Positions 10,700-62,770 of a stretch of DNA of 64,000 nt are shown here, piece after piece. The notes below the pieces were generated by a model. The model was not told where the DNA came from. It saw only the letters and a program-made list of their open reading frames with translations, and made no database searches. Positions within the stretch are counted from its first letter, which is position 1. Each line of letters opens with the position of its first letter. The stretch comes from an uncultured Chloroflexia bacterium. Lineage in GTDB: Bacteria; Chloroflexota; Limnocylindria; Limnocylindrales; CSP1-4. The position numbers and the translations under genes are program-made. The DNA lies in contig CAWEYL010000005.1 in NCBI GenBank assembly GCA_963813335.1, forward strand, positions 43,201 to 107,200, in the 5' to 3' direction.

Positions 10700-11002
10700 T
10701 CAGTCGCCCAGGTGGGACCCGCTGCGCACGGCGAACGGCCCCAGGTCGCCGCCCGGCGGGCCCCAACGCTCGCTGACGTCGGTCACCAGGGCTGCCGGCG
10801 GGCCGGCGCGAAGGATGGCCAGGAACGCCTCCAGGCGGTCGCGCGGACCCTGGGCCACGCACCGCACCGAGCCGTCCGGCTCGTTGGCGACCCAGCCCGC
10901 GAGGTCGAGCGCCATCGCCTCGCGCCACGCGAAGTAGCGGTAGCCGACGCCCTGGACGCTGCCGCGGACGATGGCCTCGAGGCGGGCCGGCTCGGTGGTC
11001 AC
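10700..11002 (-). CDS. acyP: Acylphosphatase
   Basis: 100 aa. Signature VRGSVQGVGYRYFAWREA and the conserved GWVANEPDGSV. Confidence 0.9.
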   Translation of the reverse strand: MTTEPARLEAIVRGSVQGVGYRYFAWREAMALDLAGWVANEPDGSVRCVAQGPRDRLEAFLAILRAGPPAALVTDVSERWGPPGGDLGPFAVRSGSHLGD

Positions 11003-12246
11003 GCCGCCCGGCGGCGATGCGGCCAGTCGAGGACGAGGACGTCGAGGACCAGCTCCGGCGAGCCGTTGGCCGCGAGGAGGGTCGCCGCGCGTTCCGTCGC
11101 CGCGAGCGCCAGCGCGGCCGCGCCATCCGGCAGGTCCGCCGCGGCGGCGGTCAGCTCCTCGAGCAGGTCGGGGTCGCGGACCGCGCGGACGCCGCCGGCA
11201 CTGACCAGGGCGAGATCGCGCGCGACGTCGATCCAGACCGAGACGAGGATCTCGGCCGCGCGGCGCCGCAGCGGGGCCGGGATCGCGCGGCCGACGGCCG
11301 GCTCGGGCGGCTCATCGACGGTCACGTCCGCGGCCGGATCGTCGTCGGTCGCGGCCGGGGCAGGCGGCGGGCCGGTGCCGGCCGCCCCCTTCGCGGGACG
11401 TCGGCCCGAGCGCCCGGCGGTCTTCTCGCCGGCGCCATCCGCCACGGGGAGCGGGGCCATCGCGGCCTCCAGCGCGGTCGACATCGCGATGGCGATCGGC
11501 AGCGCCTCGCGCATGGCGACCAGTCGGCGCGCCGGTCGCGCGGCGAGGAGGTCCAGCAGGGTGCGCGCCAGCTCGGCGCGGGCACGGACCGCGTCGGGGG
11601 CGCGGGCGTAGGCGATGGCGACGCCGGGCCGGCCGGCCGCCAGCCGGGCCAGCCGGGAGGCGAGCGGGGCGTCGGCCACGCCGTGCTCGGCCAGGATCGC
11701 TTCGATGTCGCGCGGGCCGACCGGACCCAGCCGGATCCGCGCGCAGCGCGACCGGATCGTCGGCAGCAGCCGATCGACATCGTCGGCGCACAGGATGATC
11801 GTGACCCCGTCCGGGGTCTCCTCGAGCGTCTTGAGGAGCGCGCCCTGGGCGGCCTCGTTCATCCGGTGGGCCGATTCGATCACGGCGACGCGAGCGCCCC
11901 CCTCGAGCGGCATGAGCAGCAGGTCGCCGATGAGGTCGCGGACGCCGCGCAGCTTCTCGTCACGCCCGCCGATGACGACCTGGCCGCCCGGCCCCTCCGG
12001 CGCCACCACGTGGAGGTCCGGGTGATCGCCGTGCTCGACCAGGCGGCAGCCCCGACAGGTCCGGCACGGGCGCGCCGCGACGTCCGGGTGGACGCACAGC
12101 AGCCCCGCCGCGAGGTCCATCGCGAGCGTCGTCTTGCCGACCCCACCCGGGCCGCTGAGCAGGAGCGCGTGGGGCGCCCCGCCGCGGATCATCCCCTCGA
12201 CGGCGGCCAGCGCCGTGGCCTGGCCGCGCGTCCGGGCGCCGTCCAT
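10999..12246 (-). CDS. holB: DNA polymerase III subunit delta prime
   Basis: AAA+ P-loop LLLSGPGGVGKTTLA, zinc module CRTCRGCRLVEHGDHPD and SRC-like TIRSRC. 4-nt overlap with acyP. Confidence 0.9.
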   Translation of the reverse strand: MDGARTRGQATALAAVEGMIRGGAPHALLLSGPGGVGKTTLAMDLAAGLLCVHPDVAARPCRTCRGCRLVEHGDHPDLHVVAPEGPGGQVVIGGRDEKLRGVRDLIGDLLLMPLEGGARVAVIESAHRMNEAAQGALLKTLEETPDGVTIILCADDVDRLLPTIRSRCARIRLGPVGPRDIEAILAEHGVADAPLASRLARLAAGRPGVAIAYARAPDAVRARAELARTLLDLLAARPARRLVAMREALPIAIAMSTALEAAMAPLPVADGAGEKTAGRSGRRPAKGAAGTGPPPAPAATDDDPAADVTVDEPPEPAVGRAIPAPLRRRAAEILVSVWIDVARDLALVSAGGVRAVRDPDLLEELTAAAADLPDGAAALALAATERAATLLAANGSPELVLDVLVLDWPHRRRAA

Positions 12247-12261
12247 TCGCGTGGAGACGGC

Positions 12262-14076: not shown

Positions 14077-14137
14077 TCTGACTCCTTGAGTTAGGGATCC
14101 ACCCGGCCGGCGCGAGCACGCTGCACGGCGGGCAGGT

Positions 14138-14605
14138 TCATGAGGAGTGACGCCCGGCAGCTCCAGCCGCCGTCACGATGCGTTGCAGTCGAGGTCCAGC
14201 CACGTCGAAGCCCATCCCTTCCAGGCGGGCCCGGGCGACAGGGTCATCCGGCCGAACGGTCTCGACGACCGTGCAGCCCTTGTTGCTGGCCGATCGCAGG
14301 AGTTCGTCGACGAGCGCCTCCGTGATCCGTTCCGCATCGTGGTCCGGGTCGACGACCAGCAGGTCGATCGTGCCCACGTACCCGCCGGAATGGACCGACG
14401 GACGAAGCGCGAGGACGGCCCCGCCCACGATGAGACGCCGCGATTCCGCGACGACGATGCTGGCCTGCGGCAGGTAGACGAGCTGGCGCATGAGATCCGC
14501 GGCGGCGAGCGGTCCGCCGGCAGCGGTCATCGACAGGGCGCCGTCGCTCAAGGCGACGAGACGGTCGATGTCCGTGACACGGGCGGCTCGGACCAGGTAT
14601 TCCAC
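14138..14605 (-). CDS. GNAT-family N-acetyltransferase
   Basis: Only the last 155 codons of ORF 14138..16138 look coding (VEYLVRAARVTDIDRLVALS...GYVGTIDLLVVDPDHDAERITEALVDELLRSASNKGCTVVE). GTG start at 14605. Confidence 0.75.
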   Translation of the reverse strand: MEYLVRAARVTDIDRLVALSDGALSMTAAGGPLAAADLMRQLVYLPQASIVVAESRRLIVGGAVLALRPSVHSGGYVGTIDLLVVDPDHDAERITEALVDELLRSASNKGCTVVETVRPDDPVARARLEGMGFDVAGPRLQRIVTAAGAAGRHSS

Positions 14606-14745
14606 GCGGGCGGGGTACCTCGCAGGGCCGGCGATCCGTCGCCCCCGACCGGAGCTCGAGCAGGGGTCGTACCGATCTCGCGCTCCCCTCGTCGGCGGCG
14701 AGCGAAAGCGCTCGCGACAGGCTGACGGGGCGCGGCCGACCGGTA

Positions 14746-14773
14746 TTGCAATCGGAACGCCGATGCCTATGAT
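14746..14773 (+). promoter_or_regulatory. Candidate sigma-70-type promoter for the liv operon (TTGCAA-16 nt-TATGAT)
   Basis: Hexamers seen at 14746-14751 and 14768-14773. The -10 sits in the loop of a 7-bp hairpin (CGATGCC/GGCATCG). This would give a ~200-nt leader. Confidence 0.35.
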
Positions 14774-14977
14774 ACGGCATCGCTTCGGCGGCCACCTGCG
14801 CGCCGCTCGGACGCGGGCTCGTAGCCACCACCCGTCACGCACCAGTGCCCGGCATGCGCGGCCCTCCGAGGGGGGCGGCCAGCGCCACCGGGCTCCGGGC
14901 GCCGGGGGTTCGGCTCCGATCCGCGTCGCGGGTCGCCTGCACGGGTGGATTCGACCGGTGATTTGGAGGAGTACTGG

Positions 14978-16273
14978 ATGAAACTGCACAGGATCGGTGC
15001 GCTCGCGGCCGTCAGCGTCTTGGCGTTCGCAGCGTGCAACAGCAGCGGCTCGAGCGCCGCACCGAGCACGGCGGCCAGCGGTGGCGCGGTCGCGACGCCC
15101 GGCGACACCAGCAAGGGCACGGTGAACATCGCGATCGAGCTCCCGCAGCAGGGCAGCGAGCTCGCGGCGTCCCAGCCGATCATCAACGGCATCCTGCTTG
15201 CCGTGAAGGAAGCCGGCGGCGCCGCCGGCGGGTACAAGATCGAGATCCCCAAGGAAGTCATCTTCGATGACGCCAAGGACGGCGTGCACGACCCGCAGAC
15301 GGGTGCCCAGAACATGGGCAACATCGTCGGCCTCGACAAGGTCGTCGCCGTCATCGGCCCGCTCAACTCGAGCGTCGCCAAGGTCCAGATCCCGATCAGC
15401 AACGAGGCTGGCCTGTTCCAGTGCAGCCCGGCCAACACCAACGAAGGCCTGACCAAGCCGGAGTTCGGCGCCCTCGACATCCGCAAGGCGAACCCCACGA
15501 AGATCAACTACGTGCGGGTCGTCACCACGGACGACAACCAGGGCCCGGCGGCTGCCAAGTACATCCTCGAGGTCCTTGGCAAGAAGAACGTCTACATCAT
15601 CGATAGCACCGACACGTTCGGGAAGGGCATCGCCGACAACTTCCAGAAGTACCTGGAAGCCAACGGCGGGAAGACCGTCGCCCGCGACGGCGCCCCGAAG
15701 GGCACCTCGGACTACAGCGCGCTCATGACCGCCGCGGCGGCCGCCAAGCCGGAGGCGATCTACTTCGGTGGCGTCACGGCCGACGGTGGTGCGCGCATCC
15801 TCAAGGCCGCGGTCGCGGCCGGCATGGCCGACATCCCGTTCATCGGGCCGGACGGCATCTATGACGGCAGCGCGGCGACCAAGGACTCGTTCCTGAACCT
15901 GGCCGGCGACGACGCCAAGAACTCCTACGCGACGGCCGCCGCGGTCGGGGACTTCCCCGGTCGTGAGGACTTCGCCAAGCGGTTCAAGGCTGAGTACAGC
16001 TCGGATCCGACCGGCTACAGCGCGACTGGCTACGCCTGCGCGCAGGTCGTCATCGACGCCCTCAACCGGGCGGCGGCATCGGCCGACATGAAGGCGCTCC
16101 GTGAGGCCGTCCGTGTCGCCGGTGTCGACACGACCCACAAGTACACGTCGGTGATCGGCGAGTTCACGTTCGACGCGAACGGCGACACGAGCCAGAAGAT
16201 CATCTCGTTCTACGGCTTCGACGCGGCGACCAAGGACTGGGCCTTCAAGTCCCAGCTCGACTTCGCCAAGTAA
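14978..16273 (+). CDS. livJ: Branched-chain/hydrophobic amino acid ABC transporter substrate-binding lipoprotein (LivJ/K family)
   Basis: ATG at 14978 follows a GGAGGA RBS and gives the lipobox signal MKLHRIGALAAVSVLAFAAC. Type I PBP fold, followed by livHMGF-type genes. Confidence 0.88.
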   Translation: MKLHRIGALAAVSVLAFAACNSSGSSAAPSTAASGGAVATPGDTSKGTVNIAIELPQQGSELAASQPIINGILLAVKEAGGAAGGYKIEIPKEVIFDDAKDGVHDPQTGAQNMGNIVGLDKVVAVIGPLNSSVAKVQIPISNEAGLFQCSPANTNEGLTKPEFGALDIRKANPTKINYVRVVTTDDNQGPAAAKYILEVLGKKNVYIIDSTDTFGKGIADNFQKYLEANGGKTVARDGAPKGTSDYSALMTAAAAAKPEAIYFGGVTADGGARILKAAVAAGMADIPFIGPDGIYDGSAATKDSFLNLAGDDAKNSYATAAAVGDFPGREDFAKRFKAEYSSDPTGYSATGYACAQVVIDALNRAAASADMKALREAVRVAGVDTTHKYTSVIGEFTFDANGDTSQKIISFYGFDAATKDWAFKSQLDFAK

Positions 16274-46330: not shown

Positions 46331-47554
46331 GTGGACCCCGTCTTCGGCCTGCGACGCGACGCGGCGCCCGACCTCGACGCGGTGGGCGAGGACGAGGCGC
46401 TCGCGGCCCGGATCCGCGCGGAGATCGAGCGCGACGGCCCGATGACCTTCGCGCGGTTCATGGACCTGGCCCTGTACGACCCCGACGGCGGCTACTACCG
46501 GGCGACCGATGCGCGGCCGGGTCGGGCGGGCGACTTCCTGACCGCGCCGGAGATCCATCCGGTCTTCGGCTGGGCGCTGGCGGGCCTGCTCGACGAGGCC
46601 TGGCGGCGGCTCGGCCGGCCGCGCCCGTTCGTGCTCCGCGAGCACGGCGCGGGGACCGGGACGCTCGCACTCGCCATCCTCGAGCGGCTCGGGCGGACCG
46701 GGTCGGGGTTGCGCGACGTCATCGCCTACGACCCGATCGAGGTCGAACCGGGACGCCTCGAGACCATCGCCGACCGGCTGGCCGCGGCCGGCGCCGCCGA
46801 CCGCCTGCTCGCCCCGGACCGGCGCGACGGTCCGGTCGTGGGGGTCGTGCTCGCCAACGAGGTCCTGGACGCGCTCCCGGTCCATCGCGTCCGCCAGCGC
46901 GGGACCCGCCTCGTCGAGATCGCGGTGGGGCTCGACGAGGGCGCGTTCGTCGATGTCGAGATCGAGCCGTCGAGCCTGGCGCTCGCGGCCCGGCTCGCCG
47001 CCGAGGGCATCGAGCTCGCCGACGGCCAGGCCGCCGAGATCTGCCTCGCCCTCGACCGCTGGGTCGCCGGGACGGCCGCCGGCCTCGAGCGCGGCCTGCT
47101 CCTGCTGATCGACTACGGCGCCCCCGCGGCGGAGCTGTACGACCCGGTCCGGCGTCGCGATGGCACGCTCATGGCCTACCTGCGCCATCGCGCGTCGCAC
47201 GAGCCCTATGCCCACATCGGGCGCCAGGACCTGACCGCCCACGTCGATGTCACCGCCGTCGAGCGGGCCGCGGCCGCGGCCGGTCTCAGTCACCTGGCGA
47301 CCACGACGCAGGCCGAGCTCCTCGTCGGGCTGGGCACCGAGGGTCTGCTGCGCGAGGTCCAGGAGGACCCGGCAACGAGCCTCGAGTCCTACCTCGAGCT
47401 GCGCTCGGCCCTGATGCGCCTGCTCGACCCGTCGGCGATGGGACGGTTCCGGGTGATGGCATTCGGGCGCGACTGGCCGGACGGTCCGCCGCTCGAGGGC
47501 CTCGCCTTCCGCATGCCCCGCCGGCCGTCCGCCGAACGGATGCCGTCCGACTAG
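46331..47554 (+). CDS. Class I SAM-dependent methyltransferase, MidA/NDUFAF7 (DUF185) family
   Basis: GTG at 46331. MTFARFMDLALYDPDGGYY, DFLTAPEIHPVFG, EHGAGTGTLA, ANEVLDALPVH, LLLIDYG and GRQDLTAHVD. Confidence 0.82.
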   Translation: MDPVFGLRRDAAPDLDAVGEDEALAARIRAEIERDGPMTFARFMDLALYDPDGGYYRATDARPGRAGDFLTAPEIHPVFGWALAGLLDEAWRRLGRPRPFVLREHGAGTGTLALAILERLGRTGSGLRDVIAYDPIEVEPGRLETIADRLAAAGAADRLLAPDRRDGPVVGVVLANEVLDALPVHRVRQRGTRLVEIAVGLDEGAFVDVEIEPSSLALAARLAAEGIELADGQAAEICLALDRWVAGTAAGLERGLLLLIDYGAPAAELYDPVRRRDGTLMAYLRHRASHEPYAHIGRQDLTAHVDVTAVERAAAAAGLSHLATTTQAELLVGLGTEGLLREVQEDPATSLESYLELRSALMRLLDPSAMGRFRVMAFGRDWPDGPPLEGLAFRMPRRPSAERMPSD

Positions 47555-47805: not shown

Positions 47806-47911
47806 TGGCCCCGGGCGCCGATGCGTCCCGTGTGGGTATGCCTGCCCGCTCGCTCAGGGGCCTCCAGCCAGTGACGCCTGCCCCAGGCGCGTCGCTCGAA
47901 GGGAAATCCGG

Positions 47912-48270
47912 TTGACCGGCATCTGGTACATCGTGGGCTTCGCCTTCGCCGGCGTCTCGTTCGTGTTCCTGACGATCGGCGCCGCGTGGCTCATCTCGCA
48001 CCGCAACCAGGGCGACGAGCACAAGGGCCTGCCCTACGAATCCGGGATCGACACCTACGGTGACACCCACGGCCGGTTCGGCCTGTCGTTCTACATCTAC
48101 GCCCTGCTCTTCGTCGCCTTCGACATCGAGGTCGTCTTCATCTACCTCTGGGCGATCATCTTCCGCTCGATCGGCTCGTGGGCGGCCTCGTGAGCATGTT
48201 CATCTTCGTGGCCATCCTGCTGCTCGGGCTCGCCTACGCCTGGCGCAAGGGCGTGCTCACGTGGCGCTGA
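47912..48270 (+). CDS. nuoA: NADH-quinone oxidoreductase subunit A (as sequenced: 1-nt deletion near 48187-48190)
   Basis: TTG start. ...[43 protein letters not shown] lies in one frame. The canonical C-terminus [26 protein letters not shown] lies in the -1 frame, after GCG GCC TCG TGA. Confidence 0.85.
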
Positions 48271-48974
48271 CCCCGCCGCGCGATCCGGCGGCGCCCCGCA
48301 GCGACCTGCCCGCCACCGCGGGCTCGAGCGAGCTGATCGTGCCGCTCGTCGTCCCGAACACGCTCTGGCAGGCGGACGATCCCGAGGCATACGACGGCGG
48401 CCGCGAGAGCGACATCACCCACCTGCGCGAGTACGAGGCGAGCGGCGCTGGGTCGCCGCGACGACGCGCGCTGGAGCGGCGTCCTCGAGGTCATCCCGAC
48501 CAAGGCGGACTACGTCCTGGACCTGATCCGGCGAACAGCCTGTGGCCGCTGCTGTCCGGCCTCGCCTGCTGCGCGATCGAGATGATGTCCGCGGCCACCT
48601 CGAAGAACGACATGGACCGCTGGGGCATGTTCCCGTTCCGGGCCAGCCCGCGCCAGGCGGACGTGCTGATCGTCGCCGGCACGCTGACCACCAAGATGGC
48701 CGGCCCGCTGGTCCGCCTCTGGGAGCAGATGCCGGAGCCCAAGTGGTGCGTGGCGCTGGGCGACTGCACCTGCTCGGGCGGCCGCTACAAGCGGAGCTAC
48801 TCCACGGTCGAGGGGATCGACCGGGTGATGCCGGTCGACGTCTACATCCCGGGCTGCCCGCCCCGCCCCGAGGGCCTCATCTACGGGATGATGAAGCTCC
48901 AGCAGCTGGTCAAGGAGCGCCGCGGCCACTGGCCCGATCGCGCCATCGGCCCCACCGTGCCGGAGGGCGTCTGA
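48261..48974 (+). CDS. nuoB: NADH-quinone oxidoreductase subunit B (ORF open, but a ~50-90-nt stretch is read out of frame)
   Basis: [35 protein letters not shown] and GCPPRPE. The conserved [19 protein letters not shown] that should precede NSLWP is only found in another frame. Confidence 0.88.
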
Positions 48975-48976
48975 GC

Positions 48977-49545
48977 GTGGATCGACGGCTTCAAGGCACG
49001 CCTCGAGGCGCGCTTCGCCGACCAGCTGACGGGACCCGTCCGCCAGCGCCATGACGAGACCGAGATCCGCATCGCGGCGGGCGACGTCGTGCCGGTCCTG
49101 ACGCGCCCTCCATGACGAGCCGGCGTTCCACTTCGAGTTCCTGGCGGACCTCGCGGGCGTCGACACCGGCCAGGTCATGCAGGTCGTCTACCACCTGTGG
49201 AGCGAGACCACGCCGGACTGGCTGCGCGTCATCGCCGACGGCCTGTCCCGCGAGGACCCGCGCGTCCCGTCCGCGACGTTCCTCTGGAAGGGCGCCGAGT
49301 GGATGGAGCGCGAGGCCTACGACATGTTCGGCATCACGTTCGAGGGCAACCGCGACCTGCGCCGGATCTACATGCCGCCCGACTACACGAGCTTCCCGCT
49401 CCGCAAGGACTTCTACCTGGCCGACGACGCCGCGCGCTCGCCCGGCGGCGGGCGTCCGGCCGATGGAGCGCACCCACGCCCCGACGGCGGCGCCGGCCTC
49501 GGCGCTCGTCCGCCGGTCGCCGGCGTGACCGAGGACCGCCCGTGA
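48977..49545 (+). CDS. nuoC: NADH-quinone oxidoreductase subunit C (as sequenced: start-region frame problem and 1-nt insertion near 49106-49108)
   Basis: IDGFKARLEARFADQLTGPVRQRHDETEIRIAAGDVVPVLTR, then (frame +1) LHDEPAFHFEFLADLAGVD...VYHLWS...WKGAEWMEREAYDMFGITFEGNRDLRRIYMPPDY. The only start codon (GTG 48977) is out of frame by 1 with the following codons. Confidence 0.8.
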
Positions 49546-50763
49546 CGACGACCACCCGACGCCCGTCCCTCGACGACCCGCGCGTCCCGCTCGACCGCGA
49601 GCTGGGCGTCTTCGAGCCGATCCCGCCGTACCCGCCGCGGACCGAGCGCGAGGCCGAGTTCTACACGCTCGGCGACGGCGAGATGCTGATCAACATCGGC
49701 CCGCAGCACCCGTCGACCCACGGCGTGCTCCGCGTCGTGCTCAAGCTCGACGGCGAGAAGGTCGTCGACCTCGACCCGGTCCTCGGCTACCTCCATCGCG
49801 GCGTCGAGAAGCTGTGCGAGAACGCCGACTACCACCAGGCGATCTGCTACATCGACCCGCTCGAGTACGTCAGCTCGCTCTTCTGCGAGTGGCCCGGCGT
49901 CATGGCCTTCGAGAAGCTCCTCGACGTCCAGGTCCCGCGCCGCGCGGAGTACATCCGCGTCCTCGCTACCGAGCTCAACCGGATCGCCAGCCACGCGCTG
50001 TTCCTCGGCTGGATGGCCCTGGACCTCGGCGGCCTCACGCCGATCCTCTGGTCGTTCATCGAGCGCGACGAGATCGTCGAGATGCTGGCGTCGCTCACCG
50101 GCCAGCGGATGCTCTTCAACTACATGCGCATCGGCGGCGTCAACGGCGACCTGAACCACGAGTTCATGAGCCGCCTCGGCGACTGGATGTCGCACGCGAC
50201 CGAGCAGATCGAGGCCGGCAACGCGCTGCTCAACGAGAACGAGATCTTCGTCCGCCGGATGCGCGGCCTCGGCGTCATCGACTCGAAGACGGCCCTGCGG
50301 ATGGCGATGACCGGCCCGAACCTGCGCGCGACCGGCCTGCCGTTCGACGTCCGCCGGGCGCACCCGTACTGCGTCTACCCGGAGCTCGAGTTCGACATCC
50401 CGACGCGCGCCGAGGGCGACTGCCTGGCCCGCTACCTGCTCCGCATGGACGAGATCAAGCAGAGCCTGCGGATCATCGACCAGTGCCTCCACCAGATGCC
50501 CGACGGCCCGGTCATGGCCAAGCTCCCGCGCCTGCTCCGGCCGCGGCCCGGCCAGCGCGTACGCCGCGATCGAGGGCCCGCGCGGCCAGTACGCGGCCTA
50601 CGCCATCAGCGACGGCACCGACCAGCCGTTCCGGATGCGCATCCACGACCCCTCGTTCGTCCACCTCCAGTCGGTCGGCCTGATGATGCCCGGCCACCTC
50701 GTCGCCGACACGATGGCGGTCATGGCCTCCCTCGACCCGATCATGGGCGGCGTCGACAAGTGA
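49542..50763 (+). CDS. nuoD: NADH-quinone oxidoreductase subunit D (as sequenced: 1-nt insertion near 50556-50559)
   Basis: INIGPQHPSTHGVLRVVLKLDGE, GYLHRGVEKL. The C-terminus YAAIEGPRGQYAAYAISDGTDQPFRMRIHDPSFVHLQ...DPIMGGVDK lies in the +1 frame. Confidence 0.9.
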
Positions 50764-50797
50764 CGGTCGATCGGTCGGTCCGTGGTCGCGCCTGACC

Positions 50798-52104
50798 TTG
50801 CCGGGCAAGGTCATCTTCACCGTGGTGCCGGTGCTGCTGGCGTCGCTGATCGCGCTCGTCGCGGTCGTCGCGATCCTCGGGCCGACCATCGTCGACTTCC
50901 TCGCGAACAACCTGCCGATCGTCCGCTTCGTCGTCGCGGTGACGGTCGTCCTGCTGATGACCGTGCCGACGGCCTTCCTGATCATCTACATGGAGATGAA
51001 GGTCATCGCGCTGATGAACCTGCGGATCGGCCCGGACCGGGTGGGCCCGTTCGGGTCGCTCGCTGTCGGTGGTCCACGGGCTCAAGGTCCTCATGAAGGA
51101 GGACTTCACGCCGACCGGCGCCGACCCGATCGTCTTCACGTGGGCGCCGGTCGTCGTCTACCTCGCCAGCGTCATGAGCCTGCTGGTCATCCCGTTCGCT
51201 CCCGGGCTCTTCGGGCAGGACCTCAACCTCGGGCTGCTCTACTTCTTCGCGATCGGCGGCCTGTCGGTCGTCGGCCTGCTGATGGCCGGCTGGTCGAGCT
51301 TCAACAAGTACTCGCTGCTGGGCGGGCTGCGCTCCGCGGCCCAGGTCGTCAGCTACGAGATCCCGCTCACCCTGTCGGTCGTCGGGATCATCCTGCTGGC
51401 CGGCACGATGAGCCTCAACCAGATCGTCCTGGACCAGGGCGGCTGGTTCATCGACTGGTACATCTTCCGCCAGCCGCTCGGCTTCCTGATCTTCTTCATC
51501 GCCGCGACCGCGGAGGCGAACCGGACCCCGTTCGACCTGACCGAGGCGGACTCCGAGATCGTCGCCGGCTTCGCCACCGAGTACTCGGGCATGCGCTTCG
51601 GGTTCTTCTTCTTCGCCGAGTACGTGAACGTGTTCATCATCTCGGCCCTGACCGTGACCCTGTTCTTCGGCGGCTGGAACGCGCCGTTCCCCTGGCCGTG
51701 GCCGGTCACCGTCAACCTCGACCCGGGCGAGCCTCGGGATCGTGCTGCTGCTCCTCGTCGCGATCGTCCCGCTGGTCGTGACGCTGGTCTTCGCGGCCCC
51801 GTTCTGGCTCGCGTCGTCGCGGATCAAGGGCTGGCAGGCGCTCATCGTCGGCTTCGTGCTCGCGAACATCTTCATCGTCGCCGTCATCGGCGCCTGGGCG
51901 TACATCGGGCTCGACTGGGTCGCCGGCCTCGTCTGGTTCCTGGGCAAGACCTACGTCTTCGTGTTCACGTTCGTGTGGATGCGCGGCACGCTGCCCCGCG
52001 TGCGCATCGACCAGCTCATGGACTTCGCCTGGAAGTGGCTGCTGCCCGCCGCGCTGCTCAACCTGTTCGTGACCGCGACGGCGATCGTGGTGGTGGGCAA
52101 GTGA
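50798..52104 (+). CDS. nuoH: NADH-quinone oxidoreductase subunit H (as sequenced: 1-nt insertions near 51062 and 51726-51730)
   Basis: Three frame segments. The first ends ...[15 protein letters not shown]. The second is [17 protein letters not shown]...[37 protein letters not shown]. The third is SLGIVLLLL...[26 protein letters not shown]. Confidence 0.9.
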
Positions 52105-52779
52105 TCAACGAGCTGATCCCGGGCCTCGGCATCGTCAAGGGCATGGCGCTGACCCTGCGCCGCTTCTTCGAGCCGAAGGTCACGGTCATGTACCCGGAGG
52201 TGCCGGTCGACGTCTCGCCCAAGTTCCGCGGCCGGCTCCAGCTCCTGTACGACGAGTACGGCACGCTCAAGTGCGAGACGTGCTTCCAGTGCGCCCAGGC
52301 CTGCCCGATCGAGTGCATCGACATGGGCGGCATGGACACCCGCGGCCGGTTCCACGTCCACTGGGGCGCGCCGGAGACCTACGGCGAGCGTCGCGAGGAA
52401 TCCGCGCTGCGGCGCTCCGGCCGCCCGGTCCCCGACCCGGCCTACCGGCCGTTCGCAGGCGGTCGACCTCGCGACGGTCGACGCGATCCTCGAGACCTAC
52501 GACCACGACCCGGCGCACCTGCTCGCGATCCTCGAGGAGACACAGGCCGCCTACGGATACCTGCCGGTCGCCGCGCTCAAGCGGATCAGCCAGCTCACCG
52601 GCACCTGGTACGCGATGATCTACGGCACCGCGTCGTACTACTCGCACCTGCGCTTCGAGCCCGCCGAGGCGGCCGACCAGGCGGCCGCGATGGCCGCCCA
52701 CCGACCGGCCGAGACCGCCTACCTCGCGGCCCTCGGGACGGCCCTCGGTGGCGGCACGGCCCAGCGGGCGGACGCGTGA
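52101..52779 (+). CDS. Fusion of the NuoI N-terminal half (one 4Fe-4S motif) with a NuoE-like N-terminal helical domain lacking the 2Fe-2S domain (1-nt indel near 52455-52460)
   Basis: GTG overlaps the nuoH stop. [49 protein letters not shown]...[13 protein letters not shown] is NuoI-like. From 52459, frame +1 reads [62 protein letters not shown], which is NuoE-like. No stop occurs in any forward frame between 52271 and 52618. Confidence 0.7.
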
Positions 52780-52781
52780 CC

Positions 52782-54107
52782 ATGGCGACCCTGCTGAAGA
52801 CCCCCAACGGCTGGCCGAAGATCCTGCCCGCGCGGTCGACGCTGACCGACCCGCTCGACCTCGACGCCGCCGTGACCGTCGGCGCGTTCGCCGGCCTGCA
52901 CGCGGCGGTCCGCGACCTCGGGCCGACCGCGACCATCGCCGCGATCGCCGCCTCGGGGCTGCGCGGGCGAGGCGGCGCCGGCTTCCCGGCGGGTGACAAG
53001 TGGCGGACCGCGGCGACGACCGAGGCGCCGCGGCGCTACGTCGTGGCCAACGGCTACGGCGCGGACCCGGCGTCGGGCACGGACCGCTACCTGATGGAGC
53101 ACGACCCGTACGGCGTCATCGAGGGGGTCGCCATCGCGGCCTTCGCCATCGGCGCGGAGGAGGCCTTCATCGCGGTCCGTGCCGAGGACAGCGAGGCCGT
53201 CCGCCGCCTCGAGGCCGCGATCGGCGCCGCCACCGACGCCGGGTTCATCGGCGAGGACGCCTTCGGCCCGCGTCGCGACCTGTCCGTCGTCGTCCGACCC
53301 GTCCAGGGCGCGTACATGCTCGGCGAGGAGACCGTGCTGCTGAAGGCCCTCGAGGGCAAGCGCGGCCAGCCCGAGCAGCGGCCGCCGCATCCCGCGGAGC
53401 GCGGCCTGTGGGGCATGCCGACGGTCGTCCAGAACGTGCAGACCCTCGGCGCGCTCGGCTGGATCCTTCGTAACGGTCCGGCCGCCTACGTCGCCACCGG
53501 GTCCAAGGCCAGCCCGGGCACCGTCCTCGTCCAGGTGCGCACCCCGTCCGGCGACGGGATCGCCGAGGTGCCGCTCGGGACGCCGCTGCGCAAGGTCGTC
53601 GCGCTCGGCGGCGCGCTCCCCGACGGCCGGTCGATCAAGGCCGTGCTCGTCGGCGGCCCGTCCGGCGGCCTGCTGCCGCCCGAGGCGCTCGACACGCCCT
53701 ACGACTTCGGGCCGCTCCGCGCGGCCGGCGCGCACATCGGCTCGGGCTCGGTGGTCGTCGCCGACGACCGGGCCTGCATCGTGGACCTCGCCCGCCTGCT
53801 GACCCGGTTCTGCGCCGGCGAGGCGTGCGGCAAGACCATCCCGTGCCGGATCGGCACGCGCCGCCTGGTCGAGATCGCCGACCGGGTCGTGGACGGCCGT
53901 CCGCGCCCCACCGACATGGACCTCCTGACCGACCTCTCGGCCGATATCGCGGCCTCCGCGCTGTGCGACCACGAGCGCCTGACGACCCTCCCGCTCACGA
54001 GCGGGATGCGATACTTCCGCTCCGAACTGGACGAGCACATCCTCAACGCTGCATGCCCGGCCGGCGTCTGTCACCCGATCGCGGTGGCCGCCGGAGCGGC
54101 CCGATAA
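52782..54107 (+). CDS. Divergent NuoF-like (51-kDa family) subunit
   Basis: GLRGRGGAGFPAGDKW, GAYMLGEETVLLKALEGKRGQPEQRPPHPAERGLWGMPTVVQNVQT and EACGKTIPCRIGT. Several canonical FMN/NADH/N3 positions are substituted. Confidence 0.85.
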   Translation: MATLLKTPNGWPKILPARSTLTDPLDLDAAVTVGAFAGLHAAVRDLGPTATIAAIAASGLRGRGGAGFPAGDKWRTAATTEAPRRYVVANGYGADPASGTDRYLMEHDPYGVIEGVAIAAFAIGAEEAFIAVRAEDSEAVRRLEAAIGAATDAGFIGEDAFGPRRDLSVVVRPVQGAYMLGEETVLLKALEGKRGQPEQRPPHPAERGLWGMPTVVQNVQTLGALGWILRNGPAAYVATGSKASPGTVLVQVRTPSGDGIAEVPLGTPLRKVVALGGALPDGRSIKAVLVGGPSGGLLPPEALDTPYDFGPLRAAGAHIGSGSVVVADDRACIVDLARLLTRFCAGEACGKTIPCRIGTRRLVEIADRVVDGRPRPTDMDLLTDLSADIAASALCDHERLTTLPLTSGMRYFRSELDEHILNAACPAGVCHPIAVAAGAAR

Positions 54108-54115
54108 GGCGACCC

Positions 54116-56753
54116 ATGGCCGACCTCCTCACCCGCCCCGACAGCCGCCCGGAGACGGACCCCGTTCCCGAGCCCGAGTCGCTCGCCGACCGGCTCCTGG
54201 CGACCCGCTCGCCGCAGCGGCCGCAGTCGTCGGCGCGCATCCGCATCGAGGTCGACGGCCGGGTCGTCGAGGGCTTCGAGGGCCAGACGATCCTCGAGGT
54301 CTGCCGCGACAACGGCATCGAGATCCCGACGCTCTGCTACGAGCCGAAGCTGCCCGGCTTCGGGGCGTGCCGGATGTGCGTGGTCGAGGTGGAGGGCGAG
54401 GAGCACCCGCCGATCTCCTGCTCGCGGACGTGCGAGCCCGACATGAAGGTCCAGACCCAGACCGAGGAGGTCCGCCGCCTGCGCCGGACGAACCTCGAGC
54501 TGATCTTCAGCGACCACAACGCCTACTGCCTGCCGCCCTGCCAGAACAAGTGCCCGAGCCACATCGACATCCCGGGCTTCCTCAAGGCCAACGCCGAGGC
54601 CAACTGGCGCGAGAGCACGCGGATCTTCAAGCGGACGATCCCGTTCCCCTCGGTCCTCGGGCGGGTCTGCCCGGCCCCGTGCGAGGAGCACTGCCGGCGC
54701 GACGAGGTCGACGAGGCGATCGCCATCCGCGACAGCCACCGCTACGCCGGCGACCAGGTCCTCAAGGCGATGCTCGACGAGGACGTCGATCCGCCGCTGC
54801 CGTTCGAGGTCCAGGCACCGTCCGGTCGGCGGGCCGCGGTCATCGGCTCCGGCCCGGCCGGGATGGCGGCCGCGTTCTACCTCCTGCTGGCCGGCCACGA
54901 GGTCACCATCTACGAGCGCGACCCGGCGCCGGGCGGGATGCTCCGCTACGGGATCCCGCAGTACCGCCTGCCCAAGGTCGAGGTCCTCGAGGCCGAGTAC
55001 GAGTCGGTCACCCGGCTCGGCGGCAAGATGGTCTGCAACATGGGCCTCGGGCGCGACTTCACGCTCGACGACCTGACCAACCAGGGCTTCGACGCGGTCG
55101 TGGTCGCCATCGGCTGCTACGACACCAACAAGCTGGGCATCCCCGGCGAGGACGCCGCCGAGGTCCTCGACGGCCTCGAGTACCTGCGCACCGCGACGCT
55201 CGGCCTGCCGTACCCCGAGCACGCCGGCAAGCGCGTCGTCGTCATCGGCGGCGGGTTCACCTCGATGGACTGCTCGCGGACGTCGGTCCGCCAGGGCGCC
55301 AGCGAGGTCACGCTCGTCTACCGCCGCGACATGAAGGACATGCCGGCGTCCAACGAGGTCCACGAGGCCATCGAGGAAGGCGTCACCGCCATCTTCCAGG
55401 CCGGCCCGACGCGGGTCGTCCTCGACGACAAGGGCAACGTCACCGGCGTCGAGTTCATCCGCATGGCGCTCGGCGAGCCCGACGCGTCCGGCCGCCGCCG
55501 CCCGGAGCCGGCGCCCGGCACCGAGTTCATCGTCCCGTGCGACCGCGTGCTGCTCGCCATCGGCCAGGGCCCGGACCTCACCTGGATCGGCCCGGGCTCC
55601 GAGGGCCCGGAGGCCACCAAGCAGCGCCGCCTCAAGGCCGACGCGGTCACGTTCGAGACCGGCCGGCCCGGGCGTCTTCGGCACCGGCGACGTGCGCATC
55701 GGCGCCGCGACCGTGGTCCAGGCCATCGCCGAGGGCCGCCGCTCCGCGTACGCCGTCGACGCGTTCCTCAAGGGCCTCGACCTCTCGTCGATCCGGGCCC
55801 GCCAGACGCTCGCCGAGCCGCAGCCCGAGTTCCTCTCGATCGTCCCGTTCACCGGCGAGATCAAGGAGCCGCGCTACCGGATGGCGGCCATGGAGGCCGA
55901 GGAGCGCAACCACAACTACATCGAGTACGAGCTGCCCTACACCCGCGAGGCCGCGGTCGCCGAGTCCACCCGCTGCCTGCAGTGCACCTGCGAGGCGATC
56001 GGCTTCTGCGACCTGCGCCGCCTCGGCATCGAGTACGGCACCACGCTCAAGACGCTCGAGCCGCAGTACCACCAGGGCGCCGGCTACCGGAGCGTGACCG
56101 AGAACCGCTTCACCGGGGTCAACCACGACTACGTCCGTGACGACTCGCACGCGTTCATCCTCCGCGAGCCGTCGCGCTGCATCGACTGCGGGCGCTGCGC
56201 CCAGGTCTGCTCGGAGGTGGTCGGCGCGGCCTGCTACGACTTCATGCGGATCGGCTTCGACACGCTGGTGACGACGCCGCTCGACATGAGCCTCAACGAC
56301 ACCCCGTGCGTGTCCTGCGGCCGCTGCGCCGAGACGTGCCCGACGGGCGCCCTCATGCCGAAGCCACGGATCCTGCAGAAGTACGACGTCGACGAGAGCC
56401 GCTGCATCCTGTGCGGCATCTGCGTCGACGCGTGCCCCTACGACGCGCTCCGCGACGGCGGCGACATCGAGCTCGCCCATACGAGCCGGTCCGAGCCGAT
56501 GATCGACCTGATGGCGATCGCCGCCATCGACCGCGAGACCGAGATCACCTACATCCGGCGCGAGCGCGGCTGGGCGGATGCCGCCGCCGCCGAGGGCCGC
56601 GTGCTCGACCCCGCCCGGATGCTCCCGATGCTGCCCGCCACGATCGCGGGGCTCCCGTCCGGCAACGGCAACGGGCATGGGCACGGCGACGGGCACGACC
56701 ACTCGAATGGCCACGGCGCCGGGACGGCGCTGCTCGGCAGCGGGCACGAGTAG
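54116..56753 (+). CDS. ~878-aa fusion: NuoG-type 2Fe-2S domain + GltD-like FAD/NAD(P)H oxidoreductase + NuoG/HydA-type 4Fe-4S domain + NuoI C-terminal half + His-rich tail (1-nt insertion near 55668-55673)
   Basis: [30 protein letters not shown] is 2Fe-2[20 protein letters not shown]...[12 protein letters not shown] plus [14 protein letters not shown] and [13 protein letters not shown] are GltD-like. After the frameshift come [36 protein letters not shown] and [16 protein letters not shown]. Then comes [28 protein letters not shown], which is the NuoI second motif. Confidence 0.75.
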
Positions 56754-56759
56754 GCGGCC

Positions 56760-57356
56760 GTGCTCAGGAAGCTCGTCCCGATCGTCCTCGCCCTGATGGT
56801 CCTCGGCGCCGTCGCGACCATCGCCGCGGTGATGGTGGTCGTCCTCGGCCAGGACTGGGACGACGCGCTCCTGTGGATCCTCGCCTCGATCATGATCGGC
56901 GCCGGGCTCCTCGTCGTGACGATGCGCGACATCATCCGCTGCGGCCTGGCGATGATCGTCTGCTTCGGCGCCCTCGCCGGGATCTACGTCCTGATGGGGG
57001 CGCCGCTGATCGGCGCGGCCCAGGTCATCGTCTACATCGGCGCGATCAGCGTCCTGATCCTGTTCGCGATCATGCTGACCCAGACCAAGGACGCGCCGTC
57101 CCGCCTCGTCTTCCAGACGCAGGCCGGTCCCGCGGCCATCGCCGCGATCGTGATCGCGCTCGTGATCGCCCTCTCGGTCGCGGCCACCGACTGGCCCGGC
57201 GTCGTGGCCGAGCGGATCCGCTACGCGACCGACGCGATGGCCAGGTTCATGTTCGACAGCTTCGTCCTGCCGTTCGAGGTCATCAGCGTGGTCCTGCTGG
57301 CCGCGGTCATCGGCGGCGTCTACCTCGCCAAGCGCGAGCCGGGCGGCCCGTCGTGA
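56760..57356 (+). CDS. nuoJ: NADH-quinone oxidoreductase subunit J
   Basis: 198-aa membrane protein. [27 protein letters not shown] and [16 protein letters not shown]. Confidence 0.9.
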
Positions 57357-57664
57357 GCGACTCGCTCGACGCGTATCTCGTCCTGTCGGGGATCCTGTTC
57401 GCGATCGGCTCGTTCGGGTTCCTGGCCCGCCGCAACGCCATCAGCATGCTGATGTCGATCGAGCTGATGCTCAACGCGGTCAACCTCTCGATCGTCGCAT
57501 TCGGGGCCTTCAACCCCGTGCTCGGGGTGCAGGGCCAGATCATCGCGCTGTTCGTGATGGCCATCGCCGCCGGTGAGGCCACCGTGGGCCTGGCCATCGT
57601 CATCGCCATCTACCGCAACAAGAAGACGCCGCTCGTCGACGAGTACGACGACATGCGCCGATGA
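57353..57664 (+). CDS. nuoK: NADH-quinone oxidoreductase subunit K
   Basis: GTG overlaps the nuoJ stop. [38 protein letters not shown]...[17 protein letters not shown]. Confidence 0.92.
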
Positions 57665-59624
57665 GCCCCGAGTCGCTCATCCCCCTGCTCGTCATCCTGC
57701 CGCTCAGCGGCTTCGCCATCACGGCGCTGATCGGCCGGCGGCTCGGCAAGCAGGCCCACTGGATCCCTGTCCTGGCCGTCTTCGCGGCGTGGCTCATCGC
57801 GATGAGCGTGTCGTACGCGGCGCTGACCGGCGCGGCGCCGTTCGGCGAGCACGGCTACGGCGCGACCCTCTTCGACTGGATCCCGGCCGGCGCGTTCCAC
57901 GTCGAGGCCGGGTTCTTCGTCGACCAGCTGACCGCCTGCCTGCTGATCGTGGTCACGACCATCGGCCTGCTGGTCCACGTCTACTCGATCGGCTACATGA
58001 GCCACGACCCGGGCTACTGGCGGTTCTTCGCCTACCTGAACCTGTTCATGTTCAGCATGCTCACGCTGGTCCTCGCGGACTCGTGGCTGGTGGTGTTCGT
58101 GGCGTGGGAGCTGGTCGGCCTGTCCAGCTACCTGCTCATCGGCTTCTGGTTCCGCAAGCGCTCCGCGGCCCTCGCCGCCAAGAAGGCGTTCATCGTCAAC
58201 CGCGTCGGCGACATCGGGTTCGCGCTCGGGATCATGGCCATCTTCGTGAACACCGGGACGCTGAACATCCGCGAATCGCTCGACGTGCTCACCAGCGCGA
58301 CCCTCGTCGCCTTCCCGATCCCGATCGCGATCGTCGCGCTGCTGGTGTTCGCCGGGGCGATGGGCAAGTCCGCCCAGTTCCCGCTCCACGTCTGGCTGCC
58401 GGACGCGATGGAGGGCCCCACCCCGGTCTCCGCCCTCATCCACGCGGCGACGATGGTCAACGCCGGCGTCTACCTGGTCGCCCGGGCGAACCCGCTGTTC
58501 GCGGCCTCGCCGTCCTCGCTGGTCGTGGTCGCGGCGATCGGCATCTTCACGGCCATCCTCGCCGCCTCCATCGCGATGACCCAGACCGACATCAAGCGGG
58601 TCCTCGCCTATTCGACGCTGTCGCAGCTGGGCTACATGTTCGCGGCGCTCGGGGTCGGCGCGTTCACCGCGGCGATCTTCCACCTCATGACCCATGGCTT
58701 CTTCAAGGGCCTGCTCTTCCTCGGCTCGGGCTCGGTCATCCACGCCGTCCACGAAGAGCAGGACATGCGCAGGATGGGCGGCCTCTCGAAGAAGATCCCG
58801 ATCACCTACGCGACGATGCTCATCGGCTCGCTCGCGATCGCCGGGATCCCGCCGCTGGCCGGCTTCTTCTCCAAGGACGAGATCCTCGGCGAATCCTTCA
58901 AGCAGGGCTTCCTGTGGGTGTGGGCGATCGGCTTCGTGGTCGCCGGCCTGACCGCGTTCTACATGTTCCGGCTCATGGGCCTCACCTTCTGGGGCGCGTT
59001 CCGCGGCCCGAAGGCCGTCTGGGACCGGATCCACGAGTCGGCGCCGGTCATGACCATCCCGCTGATCCTGCTGGCCATCGCGTCGGTCTTCCTCGGCATG
59101 CTCCTCGGGCTGCCGTTCGGGGCCAGCACGATCTCGGGCTGGCTCGCCCCGGTCTTCGAGGAGTCGGTCCAGGCCCTCGGCCACGAGGAGGCCGCCTTCG
59201 CCCTGTTCGGCATCGACGGCGTGCTCATCCTCGCGAGCGTGACCGTGGCGGTGGTCGGCATCGCGATCGCCTGGCGGCTGTTCGGCGTCGAGCTCCTCGG
59301 GCTGAAGCTGACCGCGCGCCCCGAGCGCGTCCGCGAGCTGAGCGCCAGGGTCCCGTTCCTCTACCGCGCCTCGCTCAACAAGTGGTGGTTCGACGAGCTC
59401 AACCACCTGCTGTTCATCGTCATCGGCGGCAAGGTCGCGAACGCCCTGTGGTGGTTCGACCGCGAGGTCGTCGACGGCACCGTGAACCTGGTCGGGCGCT
59501 CGACCGTCGCCTCGGGCCGCGGGCTCCGCCGCGTCCAGACCGGCCACGTCCAGAACTACGCGCTAGGCATCGCGGTCGGGCTCATCGTCATGGCCGGCTC
59601 GTACCTCCTGCTGGTGGGACGCTG

Positions 59625-59625
<1 letters not shown>
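57661..59625 (+). CDS. nuoL: NADH-quinone oxidoreductase subunit L
   Basis: 654 aa, Mrp-antiporter-like. [48 protein letters not shown]. Confidence 0.95.
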
Positions 59626-61279
<1,654 letters not shown>

Positions 61280-61283
<4 letters not shown>

Positions 61284-62770
61284 GCCACGACCTCTTCGTC
61301 CTCAGCCCCCTGATCGCGGCAGTCCTCACGGCGGCCGCGGTCCTCATCGTCGACCTGATCCGGCCCGGCAAGGCCATGGTCGCCGTGGCCACCGCGCTGA
61401 TCGGCCTGGCGATCACGACCGCGGTCACCCTGGCGGTCGGCCTGACCTCGAGCGGCGGCTTCGCCCAGATGACCGCGTTCGGCGGCGTCTACACGGTCGA
61501 CGCGCTGACGACCTTCCTCGACATCCTGTTCATCGCGATCATCGCGCTGACGATCTCGTTCGCACCGGACTACCTGCTCGCGCGCGGGCTGCCGGTCGCG
61601 GAATTCATCATCGTGCTGCTGTTCGCGATGACCGGCGCGATGCTGCTGTCGGCCTCGACCGACCTGCTGCTGCTCTTCCTCGGCCTCGAGCTGATGGTGC
61701 TCCCCGGCTACCTGCTGGCGGCCTACCACAAGACCGACTCGTACTCGACCGAGGGCGCGATCAAGTACTTCCTGCTCGGCTCGTTCAGCTCGGCGATCTT
61801 CCTGTTCGGCCTTGCCTTCATCTGGGGCATGACGGGCACGACCAGCGTCGACGGCGTCTACGCGGCCCTGAGCGCGATCGTCGCCGGGACGGCGCCGCTG
61901 GCGCCCGGCCTCGCGATGGGGTTGGCGTTCCTGACCACCGGTGTCGCCTTCAAGATCGCGGCGGTCCCGTTCCACTACTGGACGCCGGACGCGTACCAGG
62001 GCTCGCCCACGCCCATCACCGGCTACCTGTCGGTCGGGCCGAAGGTCGGCGCGTTCGCCCTGATCCTGCGCCTCTTCGGCGAGGCGATCTGGCCGCTCCA
62101 CGACTGGTGGCTGCCGGTCGTCATCGTGCTGGCGACGCTGACCATGACCCTCGGCAACCTCGTCGCGCTGACCCAGGACAACGTCAAGCGGATGCTGGCC
62201 TACAGCTCGATCGCGCACACCGGCTACATGCTGGTCGGCCTCGCGGCCTACGCCTCGGGCCAGATCCAGGGCCTCGAGGGGCTCCTCTACTACAGCGCCG
62301 CCTACGCGGCCATGAACCTGGGCGCGTTCGCGGTCATCGCCGCGCTCCAGAAGCGGCCGGGGGTCACCTCGCAGCTCGACACGTTCGCGGGGCTCGGGCG
62401 CAAGGAGCCGATCCTGGCGATCCTGCTGACCCTCTTCCTGCTGTCACTGACCGGCATCCCGCCGACCGCCGGGTTCTTCGCCAAGGCGTACGTGATCCTG
62501 GCCGCCGTGCAGGCCGGCGGGCCGATGACCGTGCTCGCCGTCATCGCGGTGCTCAATGCCGCGGCCGCCGCGTTCTACTACCTGCGCGTCGTCGTCTACA
62601 TGTTCATGCGCGATCCGGCCAGCGACCTCCCGGCGCTCCGCCACGGCCGGCTGGTCTGGAGCGGACTGGCGGTCGCGACGACCTTCACCATCATCCTCGG
62701 GCTGTTCCCGGAGCCGCTGCTGCAGGTGGTCGGCGAGGCCGCCGCCGCCATCTCGAAGATCGGGCTCTAG
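61280..62770 (+). CDS. nuoN: NADH-quinone oxidoreductase subunit N
   Basis: TTG overlaps the nuoM stop. LFLGLELMVLPGYLLAAY, FKIAAVPFHYWTPDAYQGSPTPITGYLS. Confidence 0.93.

Follow-up and report, generated by a model that had tools for sequence, protein, structure and literature searches.

The closest described relatives of the gene discussed here are StnC of Sporomusa ovata (8oh5/8oh9) and NfnA of Caldicellulosiruptor saccharolyticus (9bov/9bp5) and Thermococcus sibiricus (9n5u). StnC is a NuoG-like protein with an inserted GltD domain (residues 102-565), which is preceded by an N-terminal 2Fe-2S domain and followed by an inactive FdhF-like domain (residues 683-1172), which holds clusters C1 and C2 and on which tetramer formation depends (PMC10482914). 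In the Stn complex, electrons travel from flavin adenine dinucleotide (FAD) through clusters C7-C6-C5-C4-C3 to the flavin mononucleotide (FMN) of StnB (PMC10482914), and removal of cluster A1 alone abolishes bifurcation. Stn has been described without membrane subunits. Here we analyse a stretch of 64,000 nt from an uncultured Chloroflexia bacterium (contig CAWEYL010000005.1, hereafter the window; 71.6% G+C), in which a StnC-like gene stands within a nuo operon and ends in the C-terminal half of NuoI. We refer to it as the fusion gene and to the NuoF-like subunit encoded next to it as NuoF'.

Several systems related to complex I offer further points of comparison. The 11-subunit 'ancestral-type' complex I (nuoABCDHIJKLMN) is represented by Ca. 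Actinomarina, Bacillus cereus and cyanobacterial NDH-1 (Moparthi and Hagerhall, 2011, as cited in a preprint). Its gene order is that of the window, with no nuoEFG genes separating nuoD from nuoH and with an NDUFAF7-like PF02636 gene adjacent in both; in the window, however, nuoI is cut by a 4.1-kb flavoprotein module, so that a module for NAD(P)H input is present. As far as the available part of the Nuo-Bfu survey describes them, BfuABC genes replace NuoEFG in a 14-subunit A-N cluster, and membrane-bound Bfu complexes (Nuo-Bfu, Mbh-Bfu) are predicted (Schut et al., 2022, PMC9304861). That part mentions neither a split nuoI nor a GltD domain, both of which occur in the window, and NuoF' lacks the ferredoxin domain that defined BfuB there. 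According to Degli Esposti (2015, PMC4758237), NuoI gives way to a GltD-related flavoprotein in Mbx-like operons of Thermotoga and proteobacteria. As in the window, a GltD-type NAD(P)H flavoprotein takes the NuoI position beside a membrane module akin to that of complex I. There, however, NuoI is replaced and the membrane module belongs to the Mrp/Mbx type, whereas the window keeps both NuoI halves, fused to the flavoprotein module, and a true nuo set. With the canonical NuoEFG N-module, the window module has in common the FMN/NADH site, an N3-type motif, an N1b-type 2Fe-2S cluster and a NuoG-like ferredoxin domain. It differs in lacking N1a and the molybdopterin-like NuoG domain, in having an extra GltD FAD/NADPH domain, in its covalent links to NuoI and in a NuoF' that is closer to HydB/StnB.

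As sequenced, the fusion gene is split between two reading frames. Third-codon-position G+C content (GC3) is about 1.0 in the coding frames of the window, and the frames can be read from composition: the coding frame that opens at 54116 is kept until about 55670, where coding moves one base over into the frame of 55692 and no stop/start pair marks the change. The local sequence is CGGCCC-GGG-CGTCTTC. Deletion of one G from the GGG run yields a single open reading frame (ORF) of 878 amino acids, in which the joined reading forms the canonical end of a GltD-type FAD fold. Two relatives, L001 (82% nucleotide identity) and L033 (90%), have exactly one base fewer at this position, and the L033 fusion protein shares 97% of its amino acids with the window protein. 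Furthermore, there are more than 100 intact homologue clusters of 870-890 amino acids, which span the full length of the joined protein without a change of frame (84-91% identity) and whose named sources are metagenome-assembled genomes (MAGs) of Chloroflexota or 'Candidatus Limnocylindrales'. Because intact single-frame orthologues exist and both relatives have one base fewer, we read the stretch as one gene. A programmed frameshift was considered and ruled out, as the orthologues read in one frame, and misassembly of unrelated genes was ruled out by the occurrence of the same junction on 60+ independent contigs and in a second phylum. On one contig of the European Nucleotide Archive (P0005) the product is 1,075 amino acids long and continues from the fusion protein into NuoJ (PF00499), probably owing to a lost stop codon or an assembly error.

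After correction of the indel, hmmscan maps onto the protein, in this order, Fer2_4, Fer4_20, Pyr_redox_2, a Fer4_Nqo3-like match, Fer4/Fer4_7 and the NuoI C-half (Table 1). Fer4_20 (residues 138-217, E 7e-17) aligns to StnC and NfnA, the Rossmann region aligns to the NADPH-binding domain of StnC, and the cysteine motif that follows (C620-C631) is conserved in StnC-like proteins as well. Further downstream, Pfam reports a weak Fer4_Nqo3 match at residues 681-746 and Fer4/Fer4_7 at residues 731-779, and residues 751-796 correspond to positions 71-116 of the 121 in the NuoI model TIGR01971 (NCBIfam), i.e. to its second half only. Along its residues 42-773, the protein aligns throughout with 9bov_A (E 9e-159; 9bov and 9bp5 are described in the Foldseek table as the electron-bifurcating Nfn-ABC of C. 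saccharolyticus) and with StnC 8oh5_C (E 9e-140). Chance is excluded by these matches to solved structures together with Pfam E-values of 1e-17 to 1e-30 for the domains above thresholds. The last cysteine of the ferredoxin-like domain, C741, and the first of the NuoI motif, C763, are only 21 residues apart, and their clusters must therefore be close. Beyond the NuoI segment, the histidines of the Gly/His-rich tail (residues 854-877) are about 20% conserved among orthologues; the tail could have a metal-binding role or be a simple linker.

The protein falls below the cut-offs of the NuoG, GltD and PRK12814 models. NuoG (TIGR01973) matches at model positions 1-98 only, with 95.7 bits against a cut-off of 470. 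The GltD models TIGR01317/TIGR01318 give 234-311 bits against 448-483, and PRK12814 (NF009454) gives 535 bits against 916. A true small subunit of glutamate synthase is ruled out by the GltD scores below cut-off and by neighbours that are nuo genes and not gltB. Pfam and NCBIfam scans detected neither a molybdopterin nor an FdhF domain. The first-pass annotation, made from the sequence letters without database searches, had read this gene as a GltD-type domain in a NuoG/HydA-like iron-sulfur protein that ends in the NuoI C-half, without a molybdopterin-like NuoG C-domain and split by a one-base insertion near 55670. The hmmscan map, the solved structures and the intact orthologues agree on that domain order, the scans agree on the missing domain, and the insertion is borne out by the GG of L001 and L033 and by the intact orthologues. 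All of the motifs that it quoted are present, and their cysteines are 100% conserved in 61 orthologues.

The operon has the order nuoABCDH-[I'E']-[F']-[C'I'']-JKLMN, which is of the 11-subunit type. It contains all of nuoA, B, C, D, H, J, K, L, M and N, and no nuoEFG genes lie between nuoD and nuoH in the window. In the clean relative L001, NuoB carries the cysteine motifs of cluster N2 (CCAIEM...GDCTCSGG...GCPP), and NuoD carries GPQHPSTHG, i.e. the motifs are those of complex I and not of hydrogenases. The N-terminal half of NuoI is encoded about 4 kb upstream of the C-terminal half, and the NuoF' gene lies between them. This upstream gene, NuoI-N/E', is broken in the window by a +1 insertion at 52455 and forms a single ORF of 223 amino acids in L001. 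Its product matches TIGR01971 at positions 1-64, including the first CxxCxxCxxxCP motif, and then PF01257 at positions 2-64 of 145. No 2Fe-2S cluster cysteines occur in this NuoE-like domain (E') in the window protein or in 70+ orthologues.

Joined together, the two NuoI halves align to residues 23-87 and 99-158 of plant TYKY, and only the 11-residue loop between the two cysteine motifs is missing. On this alignment, nuoI has been cut in the inter-motif loop by 4.1 kb of flavoprotein-module DNA, with both ends fused in frame. TIGR01971 scores the N-half with 54 bits, the C-half with 47.5 bits and the artificially rejoined sequence with 91.9 bits, against a cut-off of 113. No single polypeptide of about 160-200 amino acids carries both CxxCxxCxxxCP motifs above the cut-off; across the two parts, the whole core and the eight cysteine ligands are present, and all eight are 100% conserved. 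No other or intact nuoI is found within the 64-kb window. The first-pass annotation had suggested that a flavin entry site would share one polypeptide with clusters N6a/N6b. The FAD domain and the NuoI C-half do stand together, but the fusion protein has only one NuoI cysteine motif and supplies only part of the N6a/N6b ligands, the other motif lying on the upstream protein, which the first-pass annotation had not connected with this gene. Likewise, the FAD site of the fusion protein stands, while the FMN of NuoF' makes two entry sites.

An AlphaFold2 model of NuoI-N/E' reaches a predicted local distance difference test score (pLDDT) above 90 only for the NuoE-like helices (residues 121-150), and the NuoI half stays below 50. 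The low confidence would fit a half-fold that needs a partner, which we count as weak evidence. In Foldseek, the helical E' part of this partly confident model is closest to NfnC (42% identity, root-mean-square deviation 1.1 Å) and StnA. The linker that leads from the first NuoI motif to the NuoE-like domain (residues 80-117, positions 52340-52455) is almost invariant in 42 orthologues and is modelled by AlphaFold2 as a helix at low confidence.

In NuoF', the FMN loop (GLRGRGGAGFP) occurs together with the NADH-site motif and a 4Fe-4S region. Among solved structures its best matches are HydB, StnB and NfnB (347-349 bits), whereas complex I NuoF reaches 242-260 bits. The alignment covers the HydB/StnB core alone; NuoF' lacks the N-terminal 2Fe-2S and the C-terminal 2x[4Fe-4S] domains. 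The combination that characterises Bfu enzymes, a NuoF-like subunit with both of these domains and a NuoE-like subunit with a 2Fe-2S cluster, is absent from the window.

Because the fusion protein, NuoF' and E' each match Stn/Nfn counterparts, the three genes form a trimmed module of the StnABC/Nfn-ABC type, in the order NuoE-like, NuoF-like, large subunit. The fusion protein follows the order of StnC and NfnA over about 775 residues, with the N-terminal 2Fe-2S domain, the inserted GltD-like FAD/NADPH domain and the ferredoxin-like 4Fe-4S domain, and NuoF-type and NuoE-type partner subunits are common to the window module and Stn/Nfn-ABC. In contrast to Stn, the FdhF-like C-terminal domain is missing, the partners are trimmed (no clusters A1, B2, B3 and B4) and the genes lie inside a nuo operon. 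Thus the GltD-in-NuoG-like architecture to which the first-pass annotation drew attention is real, but it is not new: it has already been described in StnC of S. ovata and in NfnA, and the novelty lies elsewhere. What appears to be new is that half of NuoI takes the place of the FdhF-like domain and that a split NuoI is fused on both sides to a Stn-type module. Literature searches, with subscription journals outside their scope, did not turn up any earlier account of a split nuoI, or of Stn lying inside nuoI.

The arrangement is widespread. At E<=1e-5, the NuoI-N/E' protein has 2,950 related clusters, and each of the best 120 is a single ORF of 217-240 amino acids. Relatives occur in at least 449 genomes (scan with one genome per species), and the best 80 of these are nearly all Chloroflexota or MAGs labelled Limnocylindrales. 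Neither these hits nor the homologues of the fusion protein included an identified cultured representative. In the examined loci, NuoI-N/E' is encoded in a single frame in 78 of 81, NuoF' in 71 of 80 and the fusion protein in 60 of 75, most of the remaining 15 being cut by contig ends. The cluster-ligand cysteines of the fusion protein and of NuoI-N are 100% conserved (61 orthologues for the fusion protein). Moreover, each position of GGGFTSMD and VYRR, the motifs of the NADPH-type second Rossmann fold, is the same in at least 60 of the 61 orthologues; the TGD motif is likewise invariant or almost so in the Limnocylindrales-type family, and the FMN loop of NuoF' is nearly invariant. On the 86-kb Limnocylindrales contig SLM_LV1_BS-K20 (locus 10686-16000), the operon stops after NuoF' and the fusion gene has no match in the locus; the ORFs listed for the roughly 4 kb that follow look unrelated to nuo. 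This contig is either rearranged or chimeric.

Outside this tight family, the nearest proteins in a cluster-representative search are StnC-like proteins of 1,000-1,260 amino acids with 36-46% identity. The exception is P0258 (816 amino acids), which also ends in the NuoI C-half and whose named homologues come from MAGs labelled Thermoleophilia or Actinobacteria. The operon layout of the window recurs on the P0258 contigs and on a 1.8-Mb contig of GCA_040769125.1. In this sister form, the partner of NuoI-N is a complete NuoE-like protein with 2Fe-2S cysteines, and a complete subunit of the HydB/StnB type, 636-638 amino acids long and with a canonical ESCGKCVPC, takes the place of NuoF'. Its N-terminal 2Fe-2S and C-terminal 2x[4Fe-4S] domains are both present, which is the combination of a Bfu enzyme. 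The junction CPTG...Y-D/E-L/V-D-E-S-R-C-I-x-C-G can be aligned between the Limnocylindrales and Thermoleophilia forms. A neighbour-joining tree of the StnC-like core, from which the NuoI part was excluded, unites the fused proteins of both forms in one clade in 285 of 300 bootstraps, and the fusion thus has a single origin. Most simply, the window form would be a reduced derivative that lost the clusters needed for bifurcation in Stn.

We consider it probable, with moderate confidence, that the locus encodes a Stn/Nfn-type module inside the nuoI of an 11-subunit-type operon and that the product is a proton-pumping quinone reductase fed by both NADH and NADPH. In two-cluster ferredoxin folds, each cluster takes three cysteines from one motif and one from the other. 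The two NuoI halves would pair, rebuilding the 2x[4Fe-4S] ferredoxin fold of N6a/N6b and locking the module onto NuoB/C/D, and the E' helices would hold NuoF'. NADH would be oxidised at the FMN of NuoF' and NADPH at the FAD of the GltD domain. Both flavins would then feed electrons along the NuoG-like cluster chain to N6a/N6b, to N2 in NuoB and to quinone, the reduction of which would drive proton pumping by NuoH and NuoJ-N. NADPH:NAD+ transhydrogenation is possible as a side activity because FAD and FMN would share one wire, as in Stn. Ferredoxin-linked bifurcation seems unlikely in the window form because the required domains are absent from it.

Some points weigh against this proposal. Pairing of the NuoI halves, the identity of the cluster that donates electrons to NuoI and the use of NADPH are all deduced from sequence. 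An AlphaFold2 model of a fusion orthologue of 877 amino acids, built on an alignment of 43 sequences with 84-89% identity, has a mean pLDDT of 34. In NuoF', the N3-type motif (residues 344-355) reads FC-AGEA-C-GKT-IP-C: the canonical second cysteine is Thr or Ser in 72 of 72 sequences, and Cys344, five residues before the first motif cysteine, is present in 71 of 72. Cys344 may replace the canonical second cysteine and alter the ligation of the 4Fe-4S cluster next to FMN. Furthermore, some Thermoleophilia large subunits have an altered second Rossmann fold in which YRR is lost (GDGFAA...LSP), and because of this loss the NADPH site must count as dispensable in part of the family.

These altered folds would suit an ordinary NADH:quinone oxidoreductase in which the GltD domain is a structural relic or an iron-sulfur scaffold and NADPH is no substrate. 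Such relics do occur in the family, the FdhF-like domain of Stn being itself an inactive one. However, the Rossmann motifs, TGD included, are invariant or nearly so in the Limnocylindrales-type family, which is hard to explain without nucleotide and flavin binding, and we regard this reading as unlikely. The main role could also run in reverse or sideways, with quinol and the proton motive force reducing NADP+/NAD+, or with the module, anchored in the membrane, acting as an NADPH:NAD+ transhydrogenase. Complex I can in principle run backwards, the ancestors of the module are reversible transhydrogenases, and FAD and FMN lie on one cluster chain. On the other hand, the operon has housekeeping genes as neighbours and no lithotrophy genes beside it, it is the only nuo cluster seen in the loci, and it includes the full pumping module that is expected of a forward respiratory enzyme, which leaves such a role rather unlikely. 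An electron-bifurcating or -confurcating complex of the Nuo-Bfu type, in which ferredoxin is used too, is the least probable of the catalytic alternatives and in our view very improbable for the window form. The Thermoleophilia relatives keep a full BfuBC-type core beside the same fusion, and membrane-bound Bfu complexes are among those predicted in the survey cited above; yet in the window and 70+ orthologues the NuoE-like part is cysteine-free and the NuoF-like subunit lacks both extra domains, and loss of A1 is sufficient to end bifurcation in Stn.

A further question is whether the protein is made at all. Comparison with L001 and L033 places about 11 uncompensated +1 insertions between 48447 and 55672 (7.3 kb), all of them insertions and none a deletion, which break six genes: nuoA, nuoC, nuoD, nuoH, nuoI'-nuoE' and the fusion gene. 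If these frameshifts were genuine, the operon would be a decaying pseudogene cluster in this organism. We think this quite unlikely, since every one of the changes is +1, GC3 is near 1.0 in every segment, amino acid identity to the relatives is still 90-97% and nuoJ to nuoN are free of frameshifts, with no +1 insertions at 56-62.7 kb. Moreover, other long-contig MAGs of the clade (L008, L033, L056 and L065) have frameshifts of their own at different positions, which points to assembly error. Because all changes are insertions, the protein is otherwise conserved and other MAGs are frameshifted elsewhere, the break at 55670 is probably a sequence error, and the cluster of insertions suggests a locally poor assembly stretch.

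The layout is, as far as the literature searches reached, undescribed, and it is conserved in hundreds of genomes of uncultured soil and freshwater bacteria. Source annotations call the module genes 'FAD-dependent oxidoreductase', 'formate dehydrogenase major subunit' and 'ferredoxin'; pathway reconstructions would therefore score a complex I without NuoI, NuoE and NuoG. Such mis-scoring would affect Limnocylindrales-type Chloroflexota and Thermoleophilia, both of which are frequent among MAG and metagenome matches. With regard to mechanism, a 2x[4Fe-4S] ferredoxin fold would be divided between two proteins and serve as the docking joint of an input module. With regard to evolution, the full Bfu-type core and the trimmed core would provide a natural series for the acquisition of an input module by complex I. 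Were the GltD site active, electrons of NADPH could enter the respiratory chain directly and contribute to proton pumping. We put forward only tentatively the broader view of a proton-pumping complex in which the NuoI fold is made of two polypeptides, each covalently tied to part of a Stn/Nfn-derived module with NADH and NADPH input, as the first NADPH-linked respiratory complex I. On that view, the Thermoleophilia form could be a single membrane machine that links NADH, NADPH, ferredoxin and quinone, and would be a living intermediate of a soluble flavoprotein module docking onto the 11-subunit ancestral complex I.

Table 1. Coordinates of the features of the split-nuoI operon (window positions unless a locus is named).
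Feature	Position	Strand	Basis or remark
nuoA, nuoB, nuoC, nuoD, nuoH	47900..52104	+	tblastn with L001 proteins; L001 layout; several +1 frameshifts
Individual genes of this block	nuoA 47900-48264; nuoB to 48965; nuoC to 49473; nuoD to ~50750; nuoH 50825-52104		
Three module genes (I'E', F', C'I'')	52101-56753		
NuoI N-terminal half fused to Cys-free NuoE N-terminal helical domain, ~225 amino acids	52101..52779	+	TIGR01971 and PF01257
NuoF-like FMN/NADH subunit (NuoF'), 441 amino acids, HydB/StnB-type core	52782..54107	+	Complex1_51K, E 5e-39; NADH_4Fe-4S
StnC-like/NuoI-C fusion gene (878 amino acids)	54116..56753	+	Single ORF once one G at 55670-55672 is deleted; intact homologues
2Fe-2S NuoG/HydA-type N-domain (residues 40-116; Cys74, 85, 88, 102)	54233..54463	+	Pfam Fer2_4, E 2e-20
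His/Cys junction and GltD N-terminal FeS region (H134, C138, C142, C146 ... C185, C189, C193)	54515..54766	+	Fer4_20 match
GltD-type FAD and NAD(P)H Rossmann folds (residues 240-540; VYRR motif included)	54833..55736	+	Pyr_redox_2, E 1e-29
GGG run with one surplus G (+1 insertion splitting the ORF)	55670..55672	+	GG in relatives L001 and L033
Cys motif C620, C623, C625, C631, after the GltD domain	55974..56009	+	Cys conservation
2x[4Fe-4S] ferredoxin-like domain (C688/691/694/698 and C731/734/737/741)	56157..56354	+	Pfam Fer4_Nqo3, Fer4_7
NuoI C-terminal half (second CxxCxxCxxxCP, C763/766/769/773, and C-terminal segment)	56367..56543	+	TIGR01971
Variable tail; last ~40 residues (56630-56750) Gly/His-rich, low-complexity	56544..56750	+	Poor conservation
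nuoJ, nuoK, nuoL, nuoM, nuoN	56760..62746	+	nuoJ 56760-57356
+1 insertions	~48447, 48989, 49103, 49453, 50556, 50769, 50782, 51061, 51731, 52455, 55672		Comparison with L001 and L033
Thermoleophilia-type sister operons with split nuoI	L082 7330-12451; L084 7311-12475		

The PF02636 gene (Methyltransf_28, NDUFAF7-like; 46343-47524, forward strand) lies directly upstream of nuoA, and the same is true of L001. NuoH has about 440 amino acids in L001 and on the contig SLM_LV1_BS-K20, compared with 371-375 in the Thermoleophilia-type operons; the window nuoH lacks, at 51433, 36 nt of an internal segment that is present in L001. Positions 1-45000 of the window hold ordinary chromosomal genes, with nothing that links them to the nuo operon. 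They comprise two ATP-binding cassette (ABC) transport sets (substrate-binding proteins, BPD_transp_2-type permeases and ATPases), a ROK-family protein, Lon, ClpB, PurH, a GlpX-type fructose bisphosphatase, a luciferase-like monooxygenase and a protein with an FGE-sulfatase domain.

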